A stretch of 64,000 nt of DNA, from NCBI RefSeq assembly GCF_003018255.1, contig NZ_CP027440.1. The stretch is one strand, 5' to 3'. The notes beneath the pieces were generated by a model, which was not told where the DNA came from, made no database searches, and worked only from the letters and a program-made list of their open reading frames with translations. The number at the start of each line of letters is the position of its first letter. Positions within the stretch are counted from its first letter, which is position 1. Source of the DNA: Escherichia coli (GTDB lineage: Bacteria > Pseudomonadota > Gammaproteobacteria > Enterobacterales > Enterobacteriaceae). The position numbers and the translations under genes are program-made. Below, piece after piece: positions 2,076 through 62,820 of the stretch.

Positions 2076-3125
2076 TTATTTCCTGATAGGCAGGTAAACC
2101 GAGAACTCGGTATGACCTGGCCAACTGGTAAATTCAATTTTGCCTGAATGCTGATCAATCAAATTACGGGCGATGGATAAGCCAAGCCCGGTGCCACCTT
2201 CGCGGCCGCTGACCATCGGGTAAAACAGCGTATCCTGCAAATGAGGCGGAATACCTGGCCCGTTATCTTCCACATCAATTCGCGCCGCCAGCCGATAGCG
2301 CTCGCCGTGTAAGGTCAGTTGAAACGCTGTGCGGGTACGCAGAATGATTTCACCACCCTCCGGCCCCAGCGCCTGTAGCGCATTGCGCACAATATTCAGC
2401 AAGACCTGTTCAATTTGATCCGGGTCGTGCGCCAGTTCCGGCAGGCTGGGGTCGTAATCCCGAATCAACCGCACGTTGTCCGGCAGTTCCATCGACACCA
2501 GCGTCACCACGCGTTCAGCTACTTTATGAATACTTTCGGTAACGCGCGTACCGGGCAGTTGCGGTCCCAACAGACGGTCGACCAGATTTCGCAGCCGGTC
2601 CGCCTGTTCGATAATCACTTTGGTATATTCGAGTAGTGACGGGTCAGGTAATGCTTTGCTGAGCAGCTGCGCCGCGCCACGTAAACCGCCAAGCGGATTT
2701 TTAATCTCATGTGCCAGGCCGCGCACTAAATCACGGGCAGCAACCTGCTGGGCGTGCTGTAGCTGTTCCTGACTTAAGCGGCGCTGGTTATCCATCGGTG
2801 CCATCTCCAGCAGGATCATGCCGTCCGGCATACGCTGGGCCGTCACAGAAAGGATATGCGAGCGCCCGTCGATGACCAGCGTCACTTCGTTATCAGTAAA
2901 ACCTTGCCCCGCCTCCAGACTTTCTTGCATCAGCTCGATATTTAATGAGAAGTAGCTCAACAGTTCCGGTAACGGTGTACCAAACAATTTGCGGGAGCTT
3001 TGGGCGAGCAGTTGTTGCGCGGCGGGGTTGGCGTAATGGATCGCCAGGTTGTCATCGATTAACAAAATACTGTTAATCAGCGAGTTGAGGATCTGCCCAG
3101 CATCGGGCTGCGTGCCTGTTGCCAT
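2076..3125 (-). CDS. glnL: Nitrogen regulation sensor histidine kinase NtrB (NRII), 349 aa
   Basis: ORF-track peptide [25 protein letters not shown]... with H-box HEIKNPLGG; 11-nt gap to glnG. Confidence 0.93.
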
Positions 3126-4860: not shown

Positions 4861-4929
4861 CTGCACCATGATGTGAATGTTGCACCAATATAGTGCTTCA
4901 ATGGAAACATTAAGCACCATATTGGTGCA
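4861..4929. promoter_or_regulatory. NtrC (NRI) upstream activator sites for glnAp2
   Basis: TGCACC...GGTGCA-type dyads read at 4881-4896 (tgcaccaatatagtgc) and 4914-4929 (gcaccatattggtgca), plus a further tgcacc repeat from 4861. Confidence 0.65.
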
Positions 4930-5080
4930 ATGACCTTTGGATAACCCTTTTTATGCTCCGTGAAAGCGATCACAAAGGGACTCTGCAATACTTGTTTGCG
5001 GAGGATGTTTGTGATCCTGTTTTGTAGTGCGATTAATCCGTGTACAATAACGCGCTATTTCTAATGCCTGAGGCAAAGTT

Positions 5081-11073: not shown

Positions 11074-11970
11074 TTACGCATAAAGTGACAAAAATGATTC
11101 GGTTTGCTCACGATTAGGAATGCCGGCCCGACCGCCAGGCTGGGTACATTTCATCGCGGCAACCGCACTGGCAAAACGAATAGCCTCTTTTGTTGGCATT
11201 TTTTCTGCCAACGCTACCGCGAGTGCGCCGTGAAAAACATCGCCTGCTCCAGTGGTATCAACCACATTGACAGAAAATGCCTCCTGTTGACACAAATGAC
11301 CATCTTCAATCCACAACGATCCTTCAGAACCCAGCGTAACATACACTTTACCTGCTGTTTGTGTCGTTGCCTGGAACAAACCTTCTTCAGGTGACTGCAG
11401 GCCAGTCATGCGTTTCAGCCCAGGTGTTGAGAACACGGCGTGATCGGCAAGCGCGACAAGTGGAGAAATATCCTGCGGTGTCATATCGGCGTCTAAAAGC
11501 GTTGTCACACCCGCAAGGCGCGCTAGCGAGAATGCTTTTTCAGTACCGCTATGCCAGCGAACATCGGCCAGAATCAGATCATAACGAGAGAAATCGATCG
11601 CTTCTAACCATTCGGCATCAGTACCGAGATCAGGACTTGGATAATTAACGATAATCCGTTCGCCATGCTGATCAACGAGGATCGCTGATTGCGACGAACG
11701 GGCGTTAGGATATCGGCGGCAAAATGCGGTATTGACGCCCCAACCCTCAAGTTCTGCAAGTAAGGTATTTCCACAACTGTCATCGCCGACGCGACCGATG
11801 AAATCAACCTCCACGCCAAGCTTTGCGATTGCAACAGCGGCTGTTGCTGCCGGGCCGCCACCAATCTCAAGATAATGATTTGCCTGATATTTCCCGCCGC
11901 CCTCCGGCAGAGTGGGCAAAGAATAAATCCTGTCCTGAACTGTGATACCCACGCATGCAATTCTGGTCAT
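11074..11970 (-). CDS. PfkB-family sugar kinase (YihV / 6-deoxy-6-sulfofructose kinase-like), about 298 aa
   Basis: ORF 11074..12021; start placed at internal ATG ([13 protein letters not shown]...); PfkB signature [18 protein letters not shown]. Confidence 0.8.
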
Positions 11971-24670: not shown

Positions 24671-25600
24671 TTACTCCCCTTCACCCGGAAACAGGAACGG
24701 GTTGATGGAACTACGGGCATAGCCTTCTTGCTCCATTCGCGCGTCCAGTACCAGAGAGGCGAGGTCATCTGCCACGGCTTCAACTTTCGGTTCTTTTTCC
24801 TGATAAAGAATCTTCAGGTAAGTGCCGCAGTCATCGCAGCTTTCGGCTTTAATCGCGGCCTGTTCGTCATCCAGCGACCAGTAATGCAGTTTGCCGCTTT
24901 GTTCACAGTTGCTGCATTTTACGCGTACTACGTGCCATTCAGTTTCACACAGGTTGCAGTGCAGGTAACGCAGCCCCTGAGTGGTGCCAATTTGCACCAT
25001 GCTGGACACCGGCATAGAACCACAAACCGGGCAATATTGACGTTGTTCGCCATATTCCGCACGCGCTTTGCCGGGGATCAGATTGGCCATCTGCGCCCAG
25101 TAGAGCGACAGTGCAGCCCAGATAAACGGCGCTTTATCGCTGCTGACGGACGAGAAATCAGAGGCAAACAGTGCGCTGGCCATATCTTCCAGCTCCTGAG
25201 TCGATGCCTTCTCCAGATTCTCAATCACTGCCAGCGCCGGGCCGCTCATTTCAGGTTTCAGCTCAGCAATCAGCGCCATCAGCAGCTTTTGCCAGTGCTT
25301 ATCACGCGGCAGAACGTGAATATCCAGCGGGGGCTTGCCCTGTGCGCTGGCTTCTTTAATGCGCGCGGTCAGATCCATCTCCAGCGGATGGTCGTACAGC
25401 ACCACTTCCTGGGCGTGGGCGATAAGCGCAGCAAAGCGCAGGTAATCACCCAGCGGATTATTTTCTGCCAGCTCGCGCAGACGCTCGGCGCGGCGGTTGT
25501 ATAAATTCTTGAGCCGAGGGAACAATAACGGCGGAATCATATCCGCCGTACGTTTCTCGCTCGAACCCAGCTCATCTTGCGGGATTATGCGAATACTCAT
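24671..25600 (-). CDS. fdhE: Formate dehydrogenase accessory protein FdhE, 309 aa
   Basis: CxxC cysteine clusters ([31 protein letters not shown]). Confidence 0.93.
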
Positions 25601-26232
25601 TCAGCTTTCTTTTCCGTTGTCTTGCGGACCTCACGGTACCAGCGCGGGTGATGTTTCTTCGCCCAGGCGCTGGTCACCCATCCTTCCACCATGGCGGTAA
25701 TCGTGCCTTTCACCCAAAGGGCGGCGTAGATATGCACCATGATAACCACAATTAACGCCACTGCGGCAAATGAATGCAGCATTAACGCGAATCGGATCAC
25801 CGGGATTGAGAAAGCAGGCGCAAAATAAGGACGCCAGATAATCACGCCGCTCACCAGCAACAGGACCAGGAAAATAATCGCCGCCCAGAAAACGCATTTC
25901 TGACCGAAGTTATAACGCCCGGTGTCACCTACTTCCTCGTTGACGACGATCTTACGAATATTCTTCGCCCAAAAGATATCATCCCGATTGATTAGGTTGT
26001 GATGCCAGTAACGGAAAAACATGATGATGAACGAGGCAAACATAACCACGCCGACAAACGGGTGCAGAATTCGCGCCAGCTGCGGTGTGCCCATGATTTG
26101 CATCAACCAGTTGAAGGACGGGAACAAAAAGCCCAGCCCGCTCACCGCCGCCAGGATGAAGCAGAAGGCGGTGATCCAGTGGTTGATACGTTCCGGCGCG
26201 GTGTAGCGCACGATGGTGTCACGTCGTTTCAT
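25597..26232 (-). CDS. fdoI: Formate dehydrogenase-O cytochrome b556 subunit, 211 aa
   Basis: Polytopic membrane protein; 4-nt overlaps with fdoH and fdhE. Confidence 0.93.
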
Positions 26233-27131
26233 TTGCGCTCCTCGTCTTTCTCTTCGTGCAGATTATTCTCTTCCTCATCCGCACGGTTCGGACCGACACC
26301 CACGTAGTGGAATATACTGGCTGCGAAGGTAGCCGCAAAGCCAACAGCTGCGAGCGGTTTCCAGATGCCTTTCCAGAATTTCACGGTTTCGCTGATTTCC
26401 GGGTTCTCCGGCAAGCCATGATACAGATTTGGCTTGTCAGCATGGTGCAGCACGTACATAACATGTGTACCACCGACGCCTGCCGGGTCGTACAAACCCG
26501 CATTGTCGTAACCACGGGTTTTCAGCTCCGCCACGCGCTCGCTCGCCAGCGTTTTCATCGACTCTTTCGTACCGAAGTGAATCGCGCCCGTTGGGCAGGT
26601 CTTCACGCAGGCCGGTTCTTGCCCAACCACCACGCGGTCAACGCACAACGTACATTTGTAGACGCGGTTGTCTTCCGGGTTGAGGCGCGGAATGTCGAAC
26701 GGACAGCCCGCAATGCAATAACCGCAGCCGATGCACTGCTCGGACTGGAAGTCGACGATACCGTTGGCATACTGAATAATTGCCCCTTCCGCCGGGCACG
26801 CTTTCAGGCAGCCTGGATCGGAACAGTGCATACAGCCGTCTTTGCGGATCAGCCATTCCAGTTTGTCGTTCTGCTCCACTTCCGAGAATCGCATCACCGT
26901 CCACGATTTGGCACTTAAATCATTGGGGTTGTCGTACACCCCAATGTTATTGCCGACGGTATCGCGAATGTCGTTCCACTCTGAACACGCCACCTGACAG
27001 GCTTTACAGCCGATACAGGTGGTAACGTCGATGAGTTTCGCCACTTCTTCCTGGAAGTCCCGCGCCTGAGGCGCGGGGGTCAGACCGTTAGTCGCGGAAC
27101 GACGAATGATATCTTGCGATTGATAAGCCAT
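26229..27131 (-). CDS. fdoH: Formate dehydrogenase-O iron-sulfur subunit, 300 aa
   Basis: Four ferredoxin-type Cys clusters in the ORF-track peptide. Confidence 0.93.
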
Positions 27132-27143
27132 ATGTCGTCTCCG

Positions 27144-30100
27144 TTACACCTTTTCCACATTCACAAGGAAGGACTTAAACTCCGGCGTCTGCGTGTTCGC
27201 ATCACCGACGAATGGCGTCAACGTATTGGCAATAAAGCCTTTTTTCGCAACACCTTCATAGCCCCAGTGAATCGGAATACCGATGGTATCGATATCTTTG
27301 CCGTTTGCTTTCAGCGTGCGAATACGTTTGGTCACTACCGCTTTGGCTTTGATATAGCCACGGTTGGAGGAGACTTTCACAGTATCGCCCTGGGCAATGC
27401 CAAGTTTATTCGCCAGCGACTCCCCGATTTCCACAAACTGCTCTGGTTGCAAAATCGCATTCAACAGCGCGTGTTTGGTCCAGTAGTGGAAGTGCTCGGT
27501 CAGACGATAGGTGGTTCCGACATACGGGAACTTATCGGCTTTACCCAATGCTTCGGCGTCGTCTTTAAAGATACGCGCAGCCGGGTTCGAGATAACGTTT
27601 GGATGCAGCGGGTTAGTTCCCAGCGGCGTTTCAAACGGCTCGTAGTGTTCCGGGAACGGACCTTCCGCCATCTTATCGAGGGCAAACAGACGTCCCATGC
27701 CTTCCTGCTGCATGATAAACGGCCCTACGCCGCTGCCCGGAGGCGCTGCGCTGTAGTCCGGAATATCCCAGCCGGTCCACTTAGTGCCGTCCCATTTCAG
27801 CAACTGACGCTTCGGATCCCATGGGTTACCCTGCGGATCTGCGGAGGCGCGGTTATACAGAATGCGGCGGTTAAGCGGCCATGCCCATGCCCAGCCCAGC
27901 GTGTTACCGAGGCCAGACGGATCGGCGTTATCACGACGCGCCATCTGGTTACCTTCTGGCGTCCAGCTACCGGCGAAAATCCAGCAGCCACAGGAGGTCG
28001 TACCGTCATCGCGCAGTTGGGCGAACGAGCTAAGTTGTTGGCCTTTCTTGACGATAACCGCACCGGTTGCCGGATCGGTAATATCGGCCAGCGCCTTACC
28101 GTTGCTCTCCATCGCCACTTCTTCCGACTTCGGCTCATGCGGAATGGCGTAGTTCCAGGTCATATTCAGCACCTGGTCCGGGTTTGCGCCACCCTGTTCG
28201 GCATACATCTTGCGCAAGCGCAGGAAGATACCGGAGAGGATCTCGCCATCAGTCAGCGCAATCCCTGGGGCGTCCGCACCTTTCCAGTGCCACTGTAACC
28301 AGCGACCGGAGTTAACGATTGAACCGTTCTCTTCTGCGAAGCAAGTCGATGGCAGACGGAACACTTCGGTCTGGATCTTCGACGAGTCAACTTCGTTCAG
28401 CTCACCGTGGTTCTGCCAGAAGTTAGAGGTTTCAGTGTTCAGCGGGTCGATGGTGACGAGGAACTTCAGTTTCGACAGACAACCGATCACTTTGTTTTTG
28501 TTCGGGAATGAGGCAACAGGGTTAAAGCCCTGGCAGATATAGCCATTGACCTTGCCTTCTTTCATCATCTCGAAGTATTGCAGGACGTCGTAGCCTTTAT
28601 CCCACTTCGGCAACCAGTCAAAGCCCCAGCTATTTTCCGCCGTCGCTTTATCACCAAAGAATGCCTTCATCATTGAGACGAAGAATTTCGGGTAGTTGCC
28701 CCAGTAGTTGACCTGGCCTTCCAGCAGTGGTTTTGGCGTGTTGGCAGCGAGGTAAGTTTGCAGATCGGTCTGCTTCTCGCTTGGCAACGTCATGTAACCT
28801 GGCAGACTCTGCGACAGCAGCCCCAGGTCGGTCAGCCCCTGAATATTGGAGTGACCGCGCAGGGCGTTAACGCCGCCGCCAGCCATCCCCATATTGCCGA
28901 GCAGCAACTGGATCATCGCCATCGTACGAATGTTTTGCGCACCAATGGAGTGTTGCGTCCAGCCGAGCGCGTAAAGGAACGAGGCAGTTTTATCGTGAGC
29001 ACTGGTCTCAGCGATGTATTCGCAGACTTTCAGGAATGCGTCTTTTGGCGTACCACAGATGTTTTCAACCACATCTGGCGTGTAGCGGGAAACGTGCTGT
29101 TTCAGCAAGTTCCACACGCAACGTGGATGTTGCAGGGTAGTATCGCGTTTGGCGAAGCCGTTTTCGTCCAGTTCGTAAGTCCAGGAGGATTTATCGTACT
29201 TACGTTTTTCCGCGTCATAGCCGGTGAACAGGCCATCTTCAAAGCCGTAATCCTCACGCACGATCAGGCTGGCGTTGGTATAGGCTTCGGTGTATTCGCG
29301 GTTGAATTTTTCATTGTTCAGCAGGTACAGCAATACGCCTGACAGGAAAGCAATGTCAGTACCGGAACGAATAGGGGCATAGTAGTCAGCTACCGCCGCC
29401 GTACGCGTAAAGCGAGGATCGATCACAATCAGCTTCGCGCCATTGTGAATTTTGGCTTCCATCGCCCAGCGGAACCCGACCGGGTGAGCTTCAGCGGCGT
29501 TACCGCCCATCACCACGACGAGGTTGGCGTTCTTGATGTCGACCCAGTGGTTGGTCATCGCACCGCGACCAAATGTTGGAGCAAGACTTGCTACCGTTGG
29601 TCCGTGTCAGACACGCGCCTGGTTGTCGACCGCGAGCATACCCAGCGCGCGGGAGAATTTTTGCGTTAAATAGCCGGTTTCGTTACTCGACGCGGAAGCA
29701 CACAGCATCCCGGTGGAGAGCCAGCGGTTAACGGTCACGCCTTCGGCGTTTTGCGCAATGTAGTTAGCATCGCGGTCTTCTTTCATCAGTTTGGCGATGC
29801 GATCAAACGCCTCTTCCCAACTGATTTGCTGCCATTTATCAGAACCTGGCGCACGGTATTCCGGAAACTTCAGACGGCTTTCGGAGTGGATGAAATCCAC
29901 CAGGCCAGCGCCTTTCGGACAAAGTGCACCGCGGTTGACCGGGTGATCCGGGTCACCTTCGATATGGAAGATAGATGCTTTGGCGTTTTTTGCTCCGTCA
30001 CCGAGGCTGTACATCAACAGCCCACAGCCTACGGAACAATAGGTGCAGGTATTACGGGTTTCGCGGGTGCGCAGCAGTTTATACTGCCGGGTTTCCGCGA

Positions 30101-30194
30101 GTGCTACGCTGGGTGCAAAACCCAGTGCCGCTGCCGTGGTGCCTGCCATACCGCCAGCGCAGATCTTAAAGAACTGCCTTCTGCTGACCTGCAT
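27144..30194 (-). CDS. fdoG: Formate dehydrogenase-O catalytic subunit, selenoprotein with in-frame UGA (Sec) at 29607-29609; about 1016 aa
   Basis: ORF track splits the gene into 29607..30194 (Tat signal MQVSRRQFFKICAGG...) and 27144..29558; both are in the same frame and the sequence after the UGA reads H-G-P-T-V-A-S. Confidence 0.92.
29560..29606 (-). promoter_or_regulatory. Putative SECIS element directing selenocysteine insertion at the fdoG UGA
   Basis: mRNA immediately 3' of the UGA (CACGGACCAACGGUAGCAAGUCUUGCUCC...) in the position of bacterial SECIS hairpins; structure not computed. Confidence 0.5.
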
Positions 30195-30387: not shown

Positions 30388-31221
30388 GTGAAAAAAACAC
30401 AGCAAAAAGAAATCGAAAATGTGACAAATATCACAGGTGTTCGTCAAATTGAGTTATGGCGGCATGATGATTTACAACACCCACGGTTAGATGAGGTGGC
30501 GGAAGAAGTTCCCGTTGCGCTGGTCTACAACGGTATTTCGCATGTGGTGATGATGGCGTCGCCCAAAGACCTTGAGTACTTTGCGCTCGGTTTTTCGCTT
30601 TCCGAGGGGATAATCGAAAGTCCGCGCGATATCTTCGGCATGGATGTCGTTCCTTCCTGTAATGGTCTTGAAGTTCAAATTGAGCTTTCCAGCCGCCGCT
30701 TTATGGGGTTGAAGGAGCGTCGCCGGGCACTGGCGGGACGTACGGGATGTGGCGTGTGCGGCGTGGAGCAACTTAATGACATCGGAAAACCGGTGCAGCC
30801 GCTACCGTTCACCCAGACGTTTGATCTCAACAAACTGGATGATGCATTACGTCATCTCAATGATTTTCAGCCAGTGGGGCAACTGACCGGTTGTACTCAC
30901 GCCGCCGCCTGGATGTTGCCATCTGGCGAACTGGTCGGCGGGCATGAAGACGTGGGTCGCCATGTGGCGCTGGACAAACTGTTAGGCCGCCGGTCACAAG
31001 AAGGGGAAAGCTGGCAGCAAGGTGCGGTACTGGTTTCCAGCCGTGCCAGTTATGAAATGGTGCAAAAGTCGGCGATGTGCGGCGTAGAGATTTTGTTTGC
31101 GGTGTCTGCCGCGACCACACTTGCTGTAGAAGTGGCTGAACGCTGTAATTTGACGCTGGTGGGCTTTTGTAAACCGGGTCGGGCAACGGTTTATACCCAT
31201 CCGCAGCGTTTGAGCAATTAA
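30388..31221 (+). CDS. fdhD: Formate dehydrogenase sulfurtransferase FdhD, 277 aa
   Basis: ORF-track peptide [28 protein letters not shown]... Confidence 0.93.
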
Positions 31222-31270: not shown

Positions 31271-31933
31271 GTGAATTTTATTATTTTATTTATAAACAAA
31301 ACGCGTGTAGTGGCGTTAACGCCTGCGTTGCAACCTATTGATGGCGTGGCGGTGAGTTATATTGATGCTGCCGTAGCGTTGGGTAATACCATTAACGAAA
31401 TGGATAAATATTACATCCAGGAAAATTATAAAGACGATGCGTTTGCGAAAGGGAAAACGCTGCACCAGACATTCTTAAAAAATCTGGAAGCCTTTGAACC
31501 TGTAGCAGAATCTTATCATGCGGCGATTCAGGAAATTAATGACAAGCGCCAGCTTACGGAATTGAAAAATATTGAAGAAAGAGAAGGGAAAACATTCCAC
31601 TACTACTCTCTGGCAGTCATGATTTCAGCGAAACAAATTAATAACCTGATATCGCAAGATAAGTTTGATGCAGAAGCGGCAATGAAGAAAGTGTCTGAAC
31701 TGGAAACGCTGGTGGCGCAGGTCAAAGAAGCGGATAAAAGCGGCATGAATTTCTCGTTTATTAATTCGGCAGGCCAGTATCAACTCGAGGCTAAAAAATA
31801 CGTTCGCCGCATCAGAGATAAAGTCCCGTACTCTGACTGGGATAAAGAGCAACTTCAGGACGCAAACTCAAGCTGGATGGCCGAAGACTCATTTCCCGAG
31901 AGCATTATGCGAGTACAACGAAATGGTCGATGA
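31271..31933 (+). CDS. YiiG-position ORF, up to 220 aa from a GTG start; no signal peptide; possibly a 5'-truncated remnant
   Basis: Begins directly after the fdhD terminator; K-12 YiiG as recalled is a longer lipoprotein; first ATG is well inside the frame. Confidence 0.4.
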   Translation: MNFIILFINKTRVVALTPALQPIDGVAVSYIDAAVALGNTINEMDKYYIQENYKDDAFAKGKTLHQTFLKNLEAFEPVAESYHAAIQEINDKRQLTELKNIEEREGKTFHYYSLAVMISAKQINNLISQDKFDAEAAMKKVSELETLVAQVKEADKSGMNFSFINSAGQYQLEAKKYVRRIRDKVPYSDWDKEQLQDANSSWMAEDSFPESIMRVQRNGR

Positions 31934-32353
31934 AATATTTCAGTCAATTGTAATCGCGGAGCGGGTTTGTGATGAGCGCGGATATGTCACGAAGTCGTGA
32001 CAATATAAAGCAGAGTGAAGGATAAATTTTGTGAATAAAGTATCATTATTTAATGATTTTGTGAATGTTTAAATGTCTCAGATAATTTGTTTAAGCGTTA
32101 TTTATATTTGTGGCTTATGAGTCAGCGTGAATCATATCTAATATTTTTTACGATTTTTAGTTAAAAACGGCACTATTGTTATATTCCTCACGTTCCAGGA
32201 AATCAGCGGATTTACTCATATTATGCAGCGGGATACTATCCATCGGCCTGCTGAAGTTGGATTAAAAATTCGAAAGTGCACACCTTATATTTCTCTATAT
32301 ACGTATTCCTTTTGGAAAGCGTAGGGTCTCTTTTATTTCAGGGAACGTAAATA

Positions 32354-33748
32354 ATGAAAAAATCGACATTATCTTTAGCCATCGGTTTATTATTGGCATG
32401 TAGTACCGGAATGGCAAAAACACAGCATTTAACGCTGGAACAACGCATGGCATTGCTGGAAGAACGCCTGGAAGCGGCAGAAATGCGGGCAGCAAAAGCA
32501 GAGAGCCAGGTTAAACAGCTGCAGACACAACAAGCCGCTGAGATCCGCGAAATTAAGGCTGCCCAGGGCAATACGCCGGTAAATGGACAGGCAACGGCGG
32601 AATCTGCAAAGAAAAATTCCACCTCACCTAATCTTTTGCTCTCAGGTTATGGCGATTTAAAAATCTACGGCGACGTAGAATTTAATATGGATGCGGAAAG
32701 TAATCATGGCCTTCTGGCAATGACCAACGCTGATGTGAATAGCGATCCCACTAATGAACAGTGGAATCTCAATGGTCGTATTCTGTTAGGTTTTGATGGT
32801 ATGCGAAAACTGGATAATGGTTATTTCGCCGGGTTCTCCGCACAACCGCTGGGGGACATGCACGGTTCAGTAAATATCGATGATGCGGTATTCTTCTTTG
32901 GCAAAGAAAACGACTGGAAGGTCAAAGTAGGTCGTTTTGAAGCCTACGATATGTTCCCGCTGAATCAGGATACCTTTGTTGAACATTCCGGTAATACTGC
33001 GAACGATCTTTATGACGATGGCAGCGGTTATATCTATATGATGAAAGAGGGCCGCGGGCGCTCTAACGCTGGCGGTAATTTCCTCGTCAGCAAACAACTT
33101 GATAACTGGTATTTTGAATTAAACACGTTACTTGAAGACGGAACATCTTTATATAATGACGGTAATTATCATGGACGCGATATGGAGCAGCAGAAAAATG
33201 TTGCTTATCTGCGTCCAGTAATTGCCTGGTCGCCGACGGAAGAATTCACCGTTTCCGCAGCGATGGAAGCGAACGTAGTAAATAATGCTTATGGTTATAC
33301 CGATAGCAAGGGTAATTTTGTCGATCAGTCCGATCGTACCGGCTATGGTATGAGCATGACCTGGAATGGCCTGAAAACGGATCCGGAAAATGGTGTCGTG
33401 GTTAATCTTAATACCGCCTATTTAGATGCTAATAATGAGAAAGATTTCACTGCCGGGATTAACGCGCTGTGGAAACGTTTCGAGCTCGGTTATATCTACG
33501 CGCACAATAAGATTGATGAATTCAGCGGTGTAGTTTGTGATAACGACTGCTGGATTGATGATGAAGGGACGTACACCATTCACACCATTCATGCGTCTTA
33601 TCAGTTCGCTAATGTGATGGATATGGAGAACTTTAATATTTACCTCGGGACGTATTACTCCATTCTGGATAGCGACGGTGATAAAAAACACGGTGATGAT
33701 ACTGATGACCGTTACGGGGCACGCGTTCGCTTTAAATACTTCTTCTGA
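32354..33748 (+). CDS. Outer-membrane beta-barrel porin with N-terminal coiled-coil extension (carbohydrate-porin-like), 464 aa
   Basis: Signal peptide MKKSTLSLAIGLLLACSTGMA, heptad-rich segment LEQRMALLEERLEAAEMRAAKAESQVKQLQ, alternating beta-strand pattern, C-terminal ...RFKYFF. Confidence 0.7.
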   Translation: MKKSTLSLAIGLLLACSTGMAKTQHLTLEQRMALLEERLEAAEMRAAKAESQVKQLQTQQAAEIREIKAAQGNTPVNGQATAESAKKNSTSPNLLLSGYGDLKIYGDVEFNMDAESNHGLLAMTNADVNSDPTNEQWNLNGRILLGFDGMRKLDNGYFAGFSAQPLGDMHGSVNIDDAVFFFGKENDWKVKVGRFEAYDMFPLNQDTFVEHSGNTANDLYDDGSGYIYMMKEGRGRSNAGGNFLVSKQLDNWYFELNTLLEDGTSLYNDGNYHGRDMEQQKNVAYLRPVIAWSPTEEFTVSAAMEANVVNNAYGYTDSKGNFVDQSDRTGYGMSMTWNGLKTDPENGVVVNLNTAYLDANNEKDFTAGINALWKRFELGYIYAHNKIDEFSGVVCDNDCWIDDEGTYTIHTIHASYQFANVMDMENFNIYLGTYYSILDSDGDKKHGDDTDDRYGARVRFKYFF

Positions 33749-34969: not shown

Positions 34970-35118
34970 CTGTTGCCGGATATACGATCTGTAGGCCGGA
35001 TAAGGCACTCGTGCCGCATCCGGCAATCAATGCCTGATGCGACGCTGTCGCGTCTTATCAGGCCTACAACTATTGCCGACCCGTAGGCCGGATAAGGCAC
35101 TTGTGCCGCATCCGGCAG
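34970..35118. repeat. REP/BIME cluster in the rhaD-rhaA intergenic region
   Basis: Repeated gtaggccggataaggc...gccgcatccggca and gcctgatgcgacgc...cttatcaggcctac units. Confidence 0.75.
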
Positions 35119-43902: not shown

Positions 43903-44045
43903 GTGTAGGCCTGATAAGACGCTATCAGCGTCGCATCAGGCATCCTGCTCAAATGCCGGATGCGGCGTAAACGCCTTATCCTGCCTACAAAACCCATAAA
44001 TTCAACAGGTTTTGTAGGCCTGATAAGCGTAGTGCATCAGGCATT
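43903..44045. repeat. REP/BIME cluster between yiiM and cpxA
   Basis: gtaggcctgataagacgc...gcatcaggc and gccggatgcggcgtaaacgccttatc units read directly. Confidence 0.75.
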
Positions 44046-49034: not shown

Positions 49035-49135
49035 TGCCTGATGCGCTTCGCTTATCAGGCCTACATGAATTCTGCAATTTATTGAATTTGCGAACTTTTG
49101 TAGGCCGGATAAGGCGTTCGCGCCGCATCCGGCAT
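49035..49135. repeat. REP/BIME elements after pfkA
   Basis: gcctgatgcgcttcgcttatcaggcctac and gtaggccggataaggcgttcgcgccgcatccggca read directly. Confidence 0.75.
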
Positions 49136-62221: not shown

Positions 62222-62752
62222 TTACGCTTTGTAGCTTAATTCTTCGATGGTGTGGAAATGGTTGGTATAGATGCAAATGTCGCCTGCAATATCCAACGCC
62301 TTTTCAGCAATTTCACGGGCGCTAAGTTCAGTGTTTTCTAACAGCGCGCGCGCCGCAGCCTGGGCGTAAGGGCCGCCGGAGCCGATAGCAATAAGATCGT
62401 TTTCTGGCTGCACCACGTCACCGTTACCGGTGATGATAAGCGAAGCGGTTTCATCCGCGACTGCCAGCAGTGCTTCAAGTTTGCGCAGCATGCGATCGGT
62501 ACGCCAGTCTTTTGCCAGCTCAACGGCGGCTTTGACCAGATGGCCCTGATGCATTTCCAGTTTACGTTCAAACAGTTCGAACAGCGTAAAAGCATCCGCA
62601 GTACCGCCCGCAAAGCCCGCGATGACTTTGTCGTTGTACAGACGGCGGACCTTTTTCACGTTGCCTTTCATTACGGTATTGCCCAACGTGGCCTGACCAT
62701 CACCAGCGATGACCACATGGCCGTTACGGCGTACGCTTACTATAGTTGTCAC
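62222..62752 (-). CDS. hslV: ATP-dependent protease subunit HslV, 176 aa
   Basis: N-terminal Thr protease peptide [31 protein letters not shown]... Confidence 0.97.
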
Positions 62753-62820
62753 GAGCTGACCCCTTGGTTACGAATACAGAGTACAAACCCCGTACAAAAG
62801 TACGGGGCATAATGCAATTA

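Follow-up and report, generated by a model that had tools for sequence, protein, structure and literature searches.

The in-frame UGA at codon 196 of an Escherichia coli fdoG gene is a selenocysteine codon followed by a SECIS element

Does the stop codon inside the formate dehydrogenase gene of this 64-kb stretch of E. coli DNA (the window) mark a broken gene, or is it read as an amino acid? The list of open reading frames gives fdoG as two in-phase pieces, 29607..30194 (-) and 27144..29558 (-), and a sequence-only reading had claimed that a TGA at 29607-29609 is all that splits the gene. The complete coding sequence and the codon in question are as follows.

27144..30194, minus strand: fdoG coding sequence, formate dehydrogenase-O alpha subunit, 1016 aa including Sec196, plus the terminal stop
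29607..29609, minus strand: UGA codon 196, decoded as selenocysteine, which aligns with SeCys196 of FdnG in 1KQF

Translation of 30194..27144 (-) gives 1017 codons in a single frame, with a sole internal stop at codon 196 in addition to the terminal stop. The three bases at 29607-29609 read TCA on the plus strand and TGA on the minus strand, and the peptide around the UGA, AVDNQARV-U-HGPTVASL (AVDNQARV*HGPTVASLAPTFGRGAM in the translation), is the one that the earlier reading had quoted. That reading gave no strand; on the minus strand, the region 3' of the UGA runs in descending coordinates from 29606 to about 29562, which fits the interval of 29560-29609 that it had marked.

The two pieces were compared with TIGR01553, the NCBIfam profile for formate dehydrogenase alpha (FDH-N/O alpha equivalog, cut-off of 814.2). 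The pieces cover contiguous profile positions, 1-194 with 271.4 bits and 196-1009 with 1277.9 bits, and the split is therefore not a chance one; position 195, the sole profile position between them, is the UGA codon. The 820 codons downstream of the UGA are open, and it is this part that scores 1277.9 bits. The Pfam domains Molybdop_Fe4S4, Molybdopterin, and Molydop_binding are all present in the product.

With C standing in for Sec in the protein query, the UGA falls on X196 (SeCys) of FdnG in chain A of PDB 1KQF, and the next-best structure matches are chains named "selenocysteine-containing" formate dehydrogenases. The expected Sec-site peptide of FdoG is V-U-HGPTVASLAPTFGR. All 93 FdoG/FdnG-type loci retrieved, which span many bacterial lineages, have a TGA at the equivalent position. 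Of 5426 complete E. coli genomes, 5425 carry the 59-mer that contains this TGA, the median copy number being two. In the one variant 59-mer examined, C9 is replaced by U and the pair is retained as G-U. The proposal that this is a conserved selenocysteine site, and thus recoding and not a pseudogene, agrees with both the 1KQF alignment and the 93 conserved loci. It was previously reported that all three E. coli formate dehydrogenases have a bis-MGD coordinated with a selenocysteine ligand (PMC6239281). By its alignment with X196 of 1KQF and the Pfam domains, Sec196 lies at the molybdenum-ligand position of the molybdopterin oxidoreductase fold, and established knowledge leads us to expect that it ligates molybdenum in this copy as well.

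Bacterial SECIS elements lie just downstream of the UGA and are bound by the winged-helix domains of SelB (PMC4605307; PMC8124441); a G some 20 nt past the UGA is conserved in their loop (PMC4605307). Such an element follows the UGA of fdoG, and its parts were assigned as listed here, with columns numbered along the 59-nt alignment.

29554..29612, minus strand: SECIS, full Rfam SECIS_3 match, 59 nt, taking in the preceding Val codon and the UGA
29597..29607, minus strand: 5' arm of the lower stem, columns 6-16 in the MFE fold, overlapping the A of the UGA
29578..29595, minus strand: apical hairpin GGUAGCAAGUCUUGCUCC, the presumed SelB-binding minihelix, 18 nt, seven pairs
29593..29593, minus strand: bulged U, column 20, left unpaired by the Rfam consensus, by the MFE fold, and by RNAalifold
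29585..29587, minus strand: apical loop G-U-C, whose G follows the A of the UGA by exactly 20 nt
29562..29572, minus strand: 3' arm of the lower stem, columns 41-51, in which U45 pairs with A12 (enterobacterial register)

The match to RF01989 (SECIS_3) reaches 84.3 bits (gathering score of 63; E = 1.3e-20) over model positions 1-59 of 59 and is the only SECIS match in the 64-kb window. Because the SECIS_3 seed probably holds enterobacterial fdoG/fdnG sequences, this high score is partly the recognition of a near-identical sequence. The UGA occupies model positions 4-6, and within the coding sequence, pairing begins at or beside its last base. The apical hairpin starts 11 nt after the UGA, behind the spacer CACGGACCAAC, and is laid out as GG-U(bulge)-AGCA / AGUCU / UGCU-CC. 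The criteria of an 11-nt spacing and a bulged U for bacterial SECIS elements come from work on fdhF. On SECIS_2, the fdhF type, the element scores only 28.1 bits (gathering score of 70), and membership of that type was rejected; nearby Rfam matches to drz-agam-1 and ALIL, with E-values of 2.8-8.5, were treated as chance. Taken with the covariation of the apical helix described below, the SECIS_3 score bears out the earlier suggestion that the SECIS is formed by the stretch of roughly 45 nt that follows the UGA.

While the expected hairpin does form when this RNA is folded, as the sequence-only reading had anticipated, its energy does not discriminate it from other sequences. The 50 nt folded have an MFE of -14.6 kcal/mol; dinucleotide shuffling places this at z = -1.03, and 25 of the 200 shuffled sequences match or exceed the stability of the native SECIS. 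When 3000 synonymous recodings serve as the reference, the native sequence falls slightly on the less stable side of the mean (z = +0.94). For these reasons, we rejected folding energy as evidence. The evidence for the SECIS is its shape, spacing, and covariation, not its folding energy. As a lesson of method, a SECIS is recognized by structure-aware models, by spacing, and by covariation at synonymous sites, and energy alone is insufficient.

The comparative evidence was drawn from a homologue set retrieved with a degenerate, peptide-based DNA pattern, which returned 120 loci; 93 of these were of the FdoG/FdnG type and yielded 60 distinct 59-mers. Among the 60 distinct sequences, the apical helix is 99.5% paired, compared with 26-49% when the partners are slid by 1-3 columns, and RNAalifold, run independently, recovers the same helix. 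Pair 21-33 shows compensatory changes (GC in 47, AU in 9, and GU in 4 of the 60), as does pair 24-30 (AU in 40, CG in 17, and GC in 3). Both pairs covary at synonymous third positions and are intact in 60 of 60. Moreover, columns 18 (ACG Thr) and 27 (AGU Ser or GGU Gly) are invariant in all 60, whereas adjacent third positions vary freely. In the loop, G26 and U27 are invariant, U27 being a synonymous third position that is T in every one of the 60. The bulged U20 is likewise invariant in the 60 sequences; because U20 is also the middle base of a conserved Val codon, nothing can be read from this alone. When the peptide is recoded synonymously, the apical stem survives together with G26 and U27 in only about 0.5% of cases, and the peptide therefore does not dictate the hairpin. 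Pairing in the lower stem is less complete, at 83-86% across homologues in either of two registers, and the register is ambiguous. As this is a conserved coding region, much of the invariance is at the protein level, and the third-position evidence alone is independent of protein constraint.

These data bear directly on the idea that the UGA region is conserved through gene conversion between fdoG and fdnG combined with strong protein constraint, the hairpin being incidental and unselected. The two paralogues share the following run.

29542..29612, minus strand: 71-nt run identical to K-12 fdnG, covering the UGA and the SECIS

An exact identity of this length would also be expected from a conversion tract, the folding energy is unexceptional, and the peptide HGPTVA(S/G)LAP is itself highly conserved. 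However, two observations speak against conversion with protein constraint: the double compensatory changes at synonymous sites of pairs 21-33 and 24-30, found intact throughout the set and in distant lineages, and the invariance of synonymous sites 18 and 27 while others vary. Furthermore, enterobacterial loci with the identical 59-mer have diverged from the window in their flanks, at 40-43% of the synonymous codons; as this set was picked by exact match of the core, the core value of 0 of 323 is circular, and the flank figure alone is informative. Finally, an Rfam SECIS match was found in none of 11 loci whose FdhF-type paralogues have a Cys codon and the same local peptide motif CARVCHGPSVAGL, compared with five of five distant Sec FdoG-type loci and two of three Sec FdhF-type loci. 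We therefore regard an incidental hairpin as very unlikely.

The gene has a second name to contend with. In all the genomes listed, RefSeq (PGAP) labels the gene at this locus "fdnG: formate dehydrogenase-N subunit alpha", which would make it the nitrate-inducible FDH-N alpha gene. The description of TIGR01553 likewise says FDH-N, and the SECIS 59-mer is the same in both paralogues. The neighbours of the gene point elsewhere.

30388..31221, plus strand: fdhD, sulfurtransferase for FDH maturation, 277-aa ORF, by the annotation of the identical locus L001 and of K-12
26229..27131, minus strand: fdoH, beta subunit, 300-aa ORF, named fdoH in L001
25597..26232, minus strand: fdoI, cytochrome b556 gamma subunit, 211-aa ORF, by the L001 annotation
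24671..25600, minus strand: fdhE, accessory protein, 309-aa ORF, by the L001 annotation

Because fdhD is divergent and fdoH, fdoI, and fdhE lie downstream of fdoG, the fdo locus can be told apart from the fdn locus. With rha genes nearby, the arrangement is that of the K-12 fdo locus, unlike that of the yddG-fdnGHI-yddM locus. The sequence of the gene agrees. It is 100% identical to the copy of E. coli SCU-171 and 97.7% identical in nucleotides to K-12 b3894, from which it differs at 70 of 3051 nt and by 3 aa, whereas its identity to K-12 fdnG (b1474) is 74.8% in nucleotides and 76.9% in amino acids. Its product has the 1016 aa of FdoG compared with the 1015 aa of FdnG. The fdo synteny and the identity to b3894 establish the gene as fdoG, the name that the earlier reading had given it. 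That it is instead fdnG is extremely unlikely, and the RefSeq name given here is an artefact of paralogue naming. E. coli has selA, selB, selC, and selD; none of these genes, selC (tRNA-Sec) included, was found within the 64-kb window, which is without any tRNA gene.

A pseudogene reading, in which the TGA arose by nonsense mutation or through a sequencing error and translation yields only a 195-aa N-terminal fragment, gains something from the mechanical ORF call that cuts the gene in two and from the established competition of release factor 2 (RF2) at Sec codons, by which some truncated product is expected, but it has next to no chance given the long open frame with its profile score beyond the TGA, the crystallographic SeCys at the equivalent residue, and the SECIS that follows, and it is effectively refuted because the TGA is conserved, both across E. 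coli genomes and in every FdoG/FdnG-type locus retrieved.

We consider it nearly certain that the UGA at codon 196 of fdoG is recoded co-translationally as selenocysteine by means of the 3' SECIS. The frame and identity of the gene, the homology of its UGA to a crystallographic SeCys, the SECIS match, the covariation, and the synonymous constraint were all observed in the present comparison. SelB binding, Sec insertion, and Mo ligation would take place in this copy as established knowledge describes them. The mRNA directly 3' of the UGA folds as the SECIS, with a lower stem starting from the UGA itself and an apical minihelix at 29595..29578. The C-terminal winged-helix domains of SelB would bind the apical hairpin, as in the established E. 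coli mechanism, and would thereby keep the SelB-GTP-Sec-tRNA(Sec) complex at the ribosome as the UGA enters the A site. The SelB complex is expected to compete there with RF2 and insert Sec, and the Sec residue would then ligate the molybdenum of the bis-MGD cofactor.

It is possible, if unlikely, that the enterobacterial fdoG/fdnG SECIS is under extra constraint, with a further role beyond hairpin formation. Over 59-71 nt, a stretch that extends past the SelB-binding minihelix, the enterobacterial element is frozen in the two paralogues and throughout Enterobacterales, and its lower-stem register, A12-U45, differs from the C12-G44 of the Pseudomonas/Burkholderia type. An extra role of this kind could consist of tuning ribosome pausing or RF2 competition, or of SelB-dependent translational control.

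Nothing contradicts the explanation by recoding. The in-frame stop of fdoG is a selenocysteine codon with a SECIS after it, which is an ordinary and already described arrangement; textbooks have set out since the 1990s how UGA is recoded to Sec in the three E. coli formate dehydrogenases with the help of SelB and a SECIS. The value of the result is for annotation only, as it guards against calling fdoG a pseudogene or splitting it into two genes and also flags the RefSeq "fdnG" label at the fdo locus.

Comparing the element with known SECIS elements, the closest is that of K-12 fdoG (b3894) with its Sec196. It belongs to the same gene, locus, and codon and is identical over gene nt 560-660; the K-12 gene and that of the window differ only by strain-level polymorphisms outside the element. 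The fdnG gene (b1474) is a paralogue at another locus. It also has Sec at residue 196 and an identical SECIS 59-mer, and the 71-nt run is the longest exact run that it shares with fdoG, the next-longest being 36 nt. Both FdnG and FdoG are periplasmic membrane-bound heterotrimeric enzymes (PMC6239281). The SECIS of fdhF (RF01988, SECIS_2) differs in its stem sequence and 3' half, and its host protein, FDH-H, is cytoplasmic, is 715 aa long, and has its Sec at codon 140. What it shares with the fdoG element is the UGA followed by CACGG.CC, the 11-nt spacer, the minihelix that starts with GGU, the bulged U, and the G-U-C apical loop. The fdhF SECIS is the experimentally dissected model, and the SelB-dependent mechanism is the same.

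The fdoG gene, 30194..27144 (-), translates as 1017 codons, of which only codon 196 is a stop apart from the terminal one. TCA on the plus strand at 29607-29609 corresponds to TGA on the minus strand, and this codon divides the gene into two minus-strand ORFs of the same phase, as the sequence-only reading had claimed; the flanking peptide that it quoted is the one we translated, ...LGMLAVDNQARV*HGPTVASLAPTFGRGAMTNHW.... The SECIS_3 model of Rfam (RF01989) matches 29612..29554 (-) over all 59 model positions; its score of 84.3 bits exceeds the gathering score, 63, and the window contains no other SECIS hit. The span 29560-29609 proposed earlier for the element is right, because the 3' side of the UGA lies at descending coordinates. 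The fdhF-type model, SECIS_2, reached only 28.1 bits against a gathering score of 70. The features are as follows, with columns of the 59-mer counted from G29612 as column 1.

29607..30194 (-): N-terminal ORF piece, 195 aa, ending at the TGA (ORF list)
27144..29558 (-): C-terminal ORF piece (ORF list)
29609..29607 (-): UGA, columns 4-6
29606..29596 (-): spacer CACGGACCAAC, 11 nt, columns 7-17
29595..29578 (-): apical hairpin, columns 18-35
29593 (-): bulged U, column 20
29587..29585 (-): loop G-U-C, columns 26-28
29607..29597 (-): lower stem, 5' arm, columns 6-16
29572..29562 (-): lower stem, 3' arm, columns 41-51

The apical hairpin is built from the pairs G18-C35 and G19-C34 and from five pairs joining columns 21-25 with 29-33. 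Reading on from the UGA, the loop G comes exactly 20 nt later, in agreement with the general description of bacterial SECIS elements as a stem of 6-8 bp whose loop has a conserved G some 20 nt downstream (PMC4605307).

For comparison, representative genomes were searched with a degenerate pattern for R-V-(U/C)-H-G-P-(T/S)-V-A, which returned at least 120 loci. All 93 FdoG/FdnG-type loci among the matches listed carry TGA; they come from Gamma-, Beta- and Alphaproteobacteria, Actinomycetota, Terriglobia and Geobacter-like genomes, and yield 60 distinct 59-mers in a gapless alignment. Within these 60 listed sequences the apical helix is 99.5% paired, and sliding the partners by 1-3 columns lowers the pairing to 26-49% (Rfam structure) or 29-57% (the window's own register). 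Pair 21-33 occurs as GC (47), AU (9) and GU (4), and pair 24-30 as AU (40), CG (17) and GC (3), with none broken, and each of these four columns is a third position where the changes are synonymous. The third positions 18 (Thr ACG) and 27 (AGU/GGU) are unchanged in 60/60, whereas three or four different bases occur at other third positions. RNAalifold finds the same apical helix without prior input of structure, and only about 0.5% of synonymous recodings preserve both the full set of seven apical pairs and the loop bases G26 and U27. The score and the apical covariation bear out the placement of a SECIS 3' of the UGA. One chance pattern match, in a Streptomyces contig (L073, 509-534 (-)), has a peptide context unrelated to formate dehydrogenase; a pattern of this information content is expected to match a few times at random.

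No exact run shared by fdoG and fdnG is longer than the 71 nt (gene nt 583-653, window 29612..29542; the next longest is 36 nt) that lie over the UGA and SECIS. Conservation arising only from gene conversion and protein constraint is contradicted by the covariation at synonymous sites and by the Cys-codon FdhF-like paralogues (motif CARV-C-HGPSVAGL), where Rfam SECIS hits numbered 0/11. SECIS_3 matched 5/5 distant Sec FdoG-type loci, and SECIS_2 matched 2/3 Sec FdhF-type loci, the Haemophilus Sec-type fdhF (L024) falling below its gathering score. In E. coli, the best match of 5432/5433 records is at least 99% identical to the 59-mer; the sole deviant changes CAC to CAU, a C-G pair becoming U-G. 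The Cys-type loci, with TGC or TGT at the Sec position, lie in Enterobacterales and other genomes (L016, L021, L029, L045, L061, L069, L077, L097, L100, L108, L119), and often share a genome with Sec-type fdhF, fdoG and fdnG, as in Citrobacter werkmanii and Enterobacter sp. Bisph1.

Folding energy is uninformative for the SECIS here. The hairpin folds, as the earlier reading had anticipated, but its energy does not discriminate: with an MFE of -14.6 kcal/mol, z is -1.03 relative to dinucleotide shuffles, and the native sequence does not exceed synonymous recodings of its peptide in stability (z = +0.94). Asking whether any hairpin can form, as proposed earlier for refutation, is thus a test that would hardly ever be failed.

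That the gene is instead fdnG is excluded by synteny and identity. In the identical E. coli locus L001 its neighbours are the divergent fdhD, then fdoH, fdoI and fdhE, with rhaM, rhaD and rhaA further out, an order that agrees with the K-12 fdo locus and not with yddG-fdnGHI-yddM. It differs from K-12 fdoG (b3894) by 70 nt and 3 aa, with 0 differences inside gene nt 560-660, versus 74.8% nt and 76.9% aa identity to K-12 fdnG; the gene is therefore fdoG. All 3051 nt are 100% identical in several E. coli chromosomes, and the gene is present in 5425/5426 complete E. coli genomes at a median of two places, which are fdoG plus fdnG. RefSeq/PGAP names the fdo-locus gene 'fdnG: formate dehydrogenase-N subunit alpha' in every listed E. 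coli genome (L001, L125) despite adjoining genes annotated fdoH and fdoI, a systematic paralogue-naming artefact, since one equivalog model serves both paralogues. Between fdhD and rhaM (31271-33748 (+)), the annotation of L001 places two further ORFs, unlike K-12, which has an intact yiiG and the frvRXBA operon there.

31271-31933 (+): truncated yiiG ORF
32354-33748 (+): 'carbohydrate porin' ORF, 464 aa

Five further Rfam matches in the window exceed the gathering score: ES222 sRNA at 4892-4999 (+), two REP-derived naRNA4 at 34994-35064 (+) and 43908-43985 (-), ES036 sRNA at 49057-49098 (-) and the ClpQY (hslVU) promoter element at 62750-62807 (-).

A pseudogene or sequencing error is excluded by the conservation and the intact downstream frame, which uphold recoding. 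The two pieces match positions 1-194 and 196-1009 of the 1009 in NCBIfam TIGR01553 (FDH-N/O alpha, equivalog), leaving exactly one position for the UGA, and the C-terminal piece by itself reaches 1277.9 bits, where the cut-off is 814.2. Fe4S4, Molybdopterin and Molydop_binding Pfam domains were found, and a twin-arginine motif, S-R-R-Q-F-F-K, is present at the N-terminus of the translation. The 143-aa segment around the UGA aligns with FdnG of PDB 1KQF (E = 1.3e-79), and the UGA lands on residue 196, an X in the chain that is selenocysteine, as the claim of a formate dehydrogenase selenocysteine site had implied; the chains that rank next are 'selenocysteine-containing' formate dehydrogenases by their deposited names. 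In all three E. coli enzymes, bis-MGD is coordinated via a selenocysteine ligand (PMC6239281). Overall, the observation is confirmed and its interpretation supported, and the feature is an already known one.

In the established mechanism, tRNA-Sec is first charged with Ser, SelA turns the product into Sec-tRNA-Sec with selenophosphate made by SelD, and SelB-GTP holds Sec-tRNA-Sec while its C-terminal winged-helix domains bind the SECIS apical hairpin; once the UGA has reached the A site, this tethered complex inserts Sec in competition with RF2 (PMC4605307, PMC8124441). By analogy, the fdoG copy here would depend on SelA and SelD for Sec-tRNA-Sec, its apical hairpin would be bound by SelB-GTP, and Sec would probably be inserted at the UGA in competition with RF2. 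In a Mesorhizobium contig (L067), a tRNA-Sec gene (2447-2538 (-)) and the fdoG SECIS (11800-11858 (-)) are some 9 kb apart, which fits the fdoGHI-selABC clusters that PMC8124441 describes.

Support for the lower stem is weaker than for the apical helix: pairing is 83-86% across the 60 listed 59-mers, in two registers. The window and other Enterobacterales use A12-U45, and Pseudomonas- and Burkholderia-type sequences C12-G44 (columns 12, 44 and 45 are 29601, 29569 and 29568); columns 12 and 45 are mostly C/C (32) and A/T (13). This lineage switch is a slipped-register form of covariation. On the established view, which comes from fdhF, nothing beyond the apical minihelix and its spacing from the UGA is essential, and the weaker, two-register lower stem fits that view. 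The proposed comparison with known elements also holds, for fdnG through the shared exact run and for K-12 fdhF through a common UGA-CACGG start, 11-nt spacer, GGU minihelix start and GUC loop.
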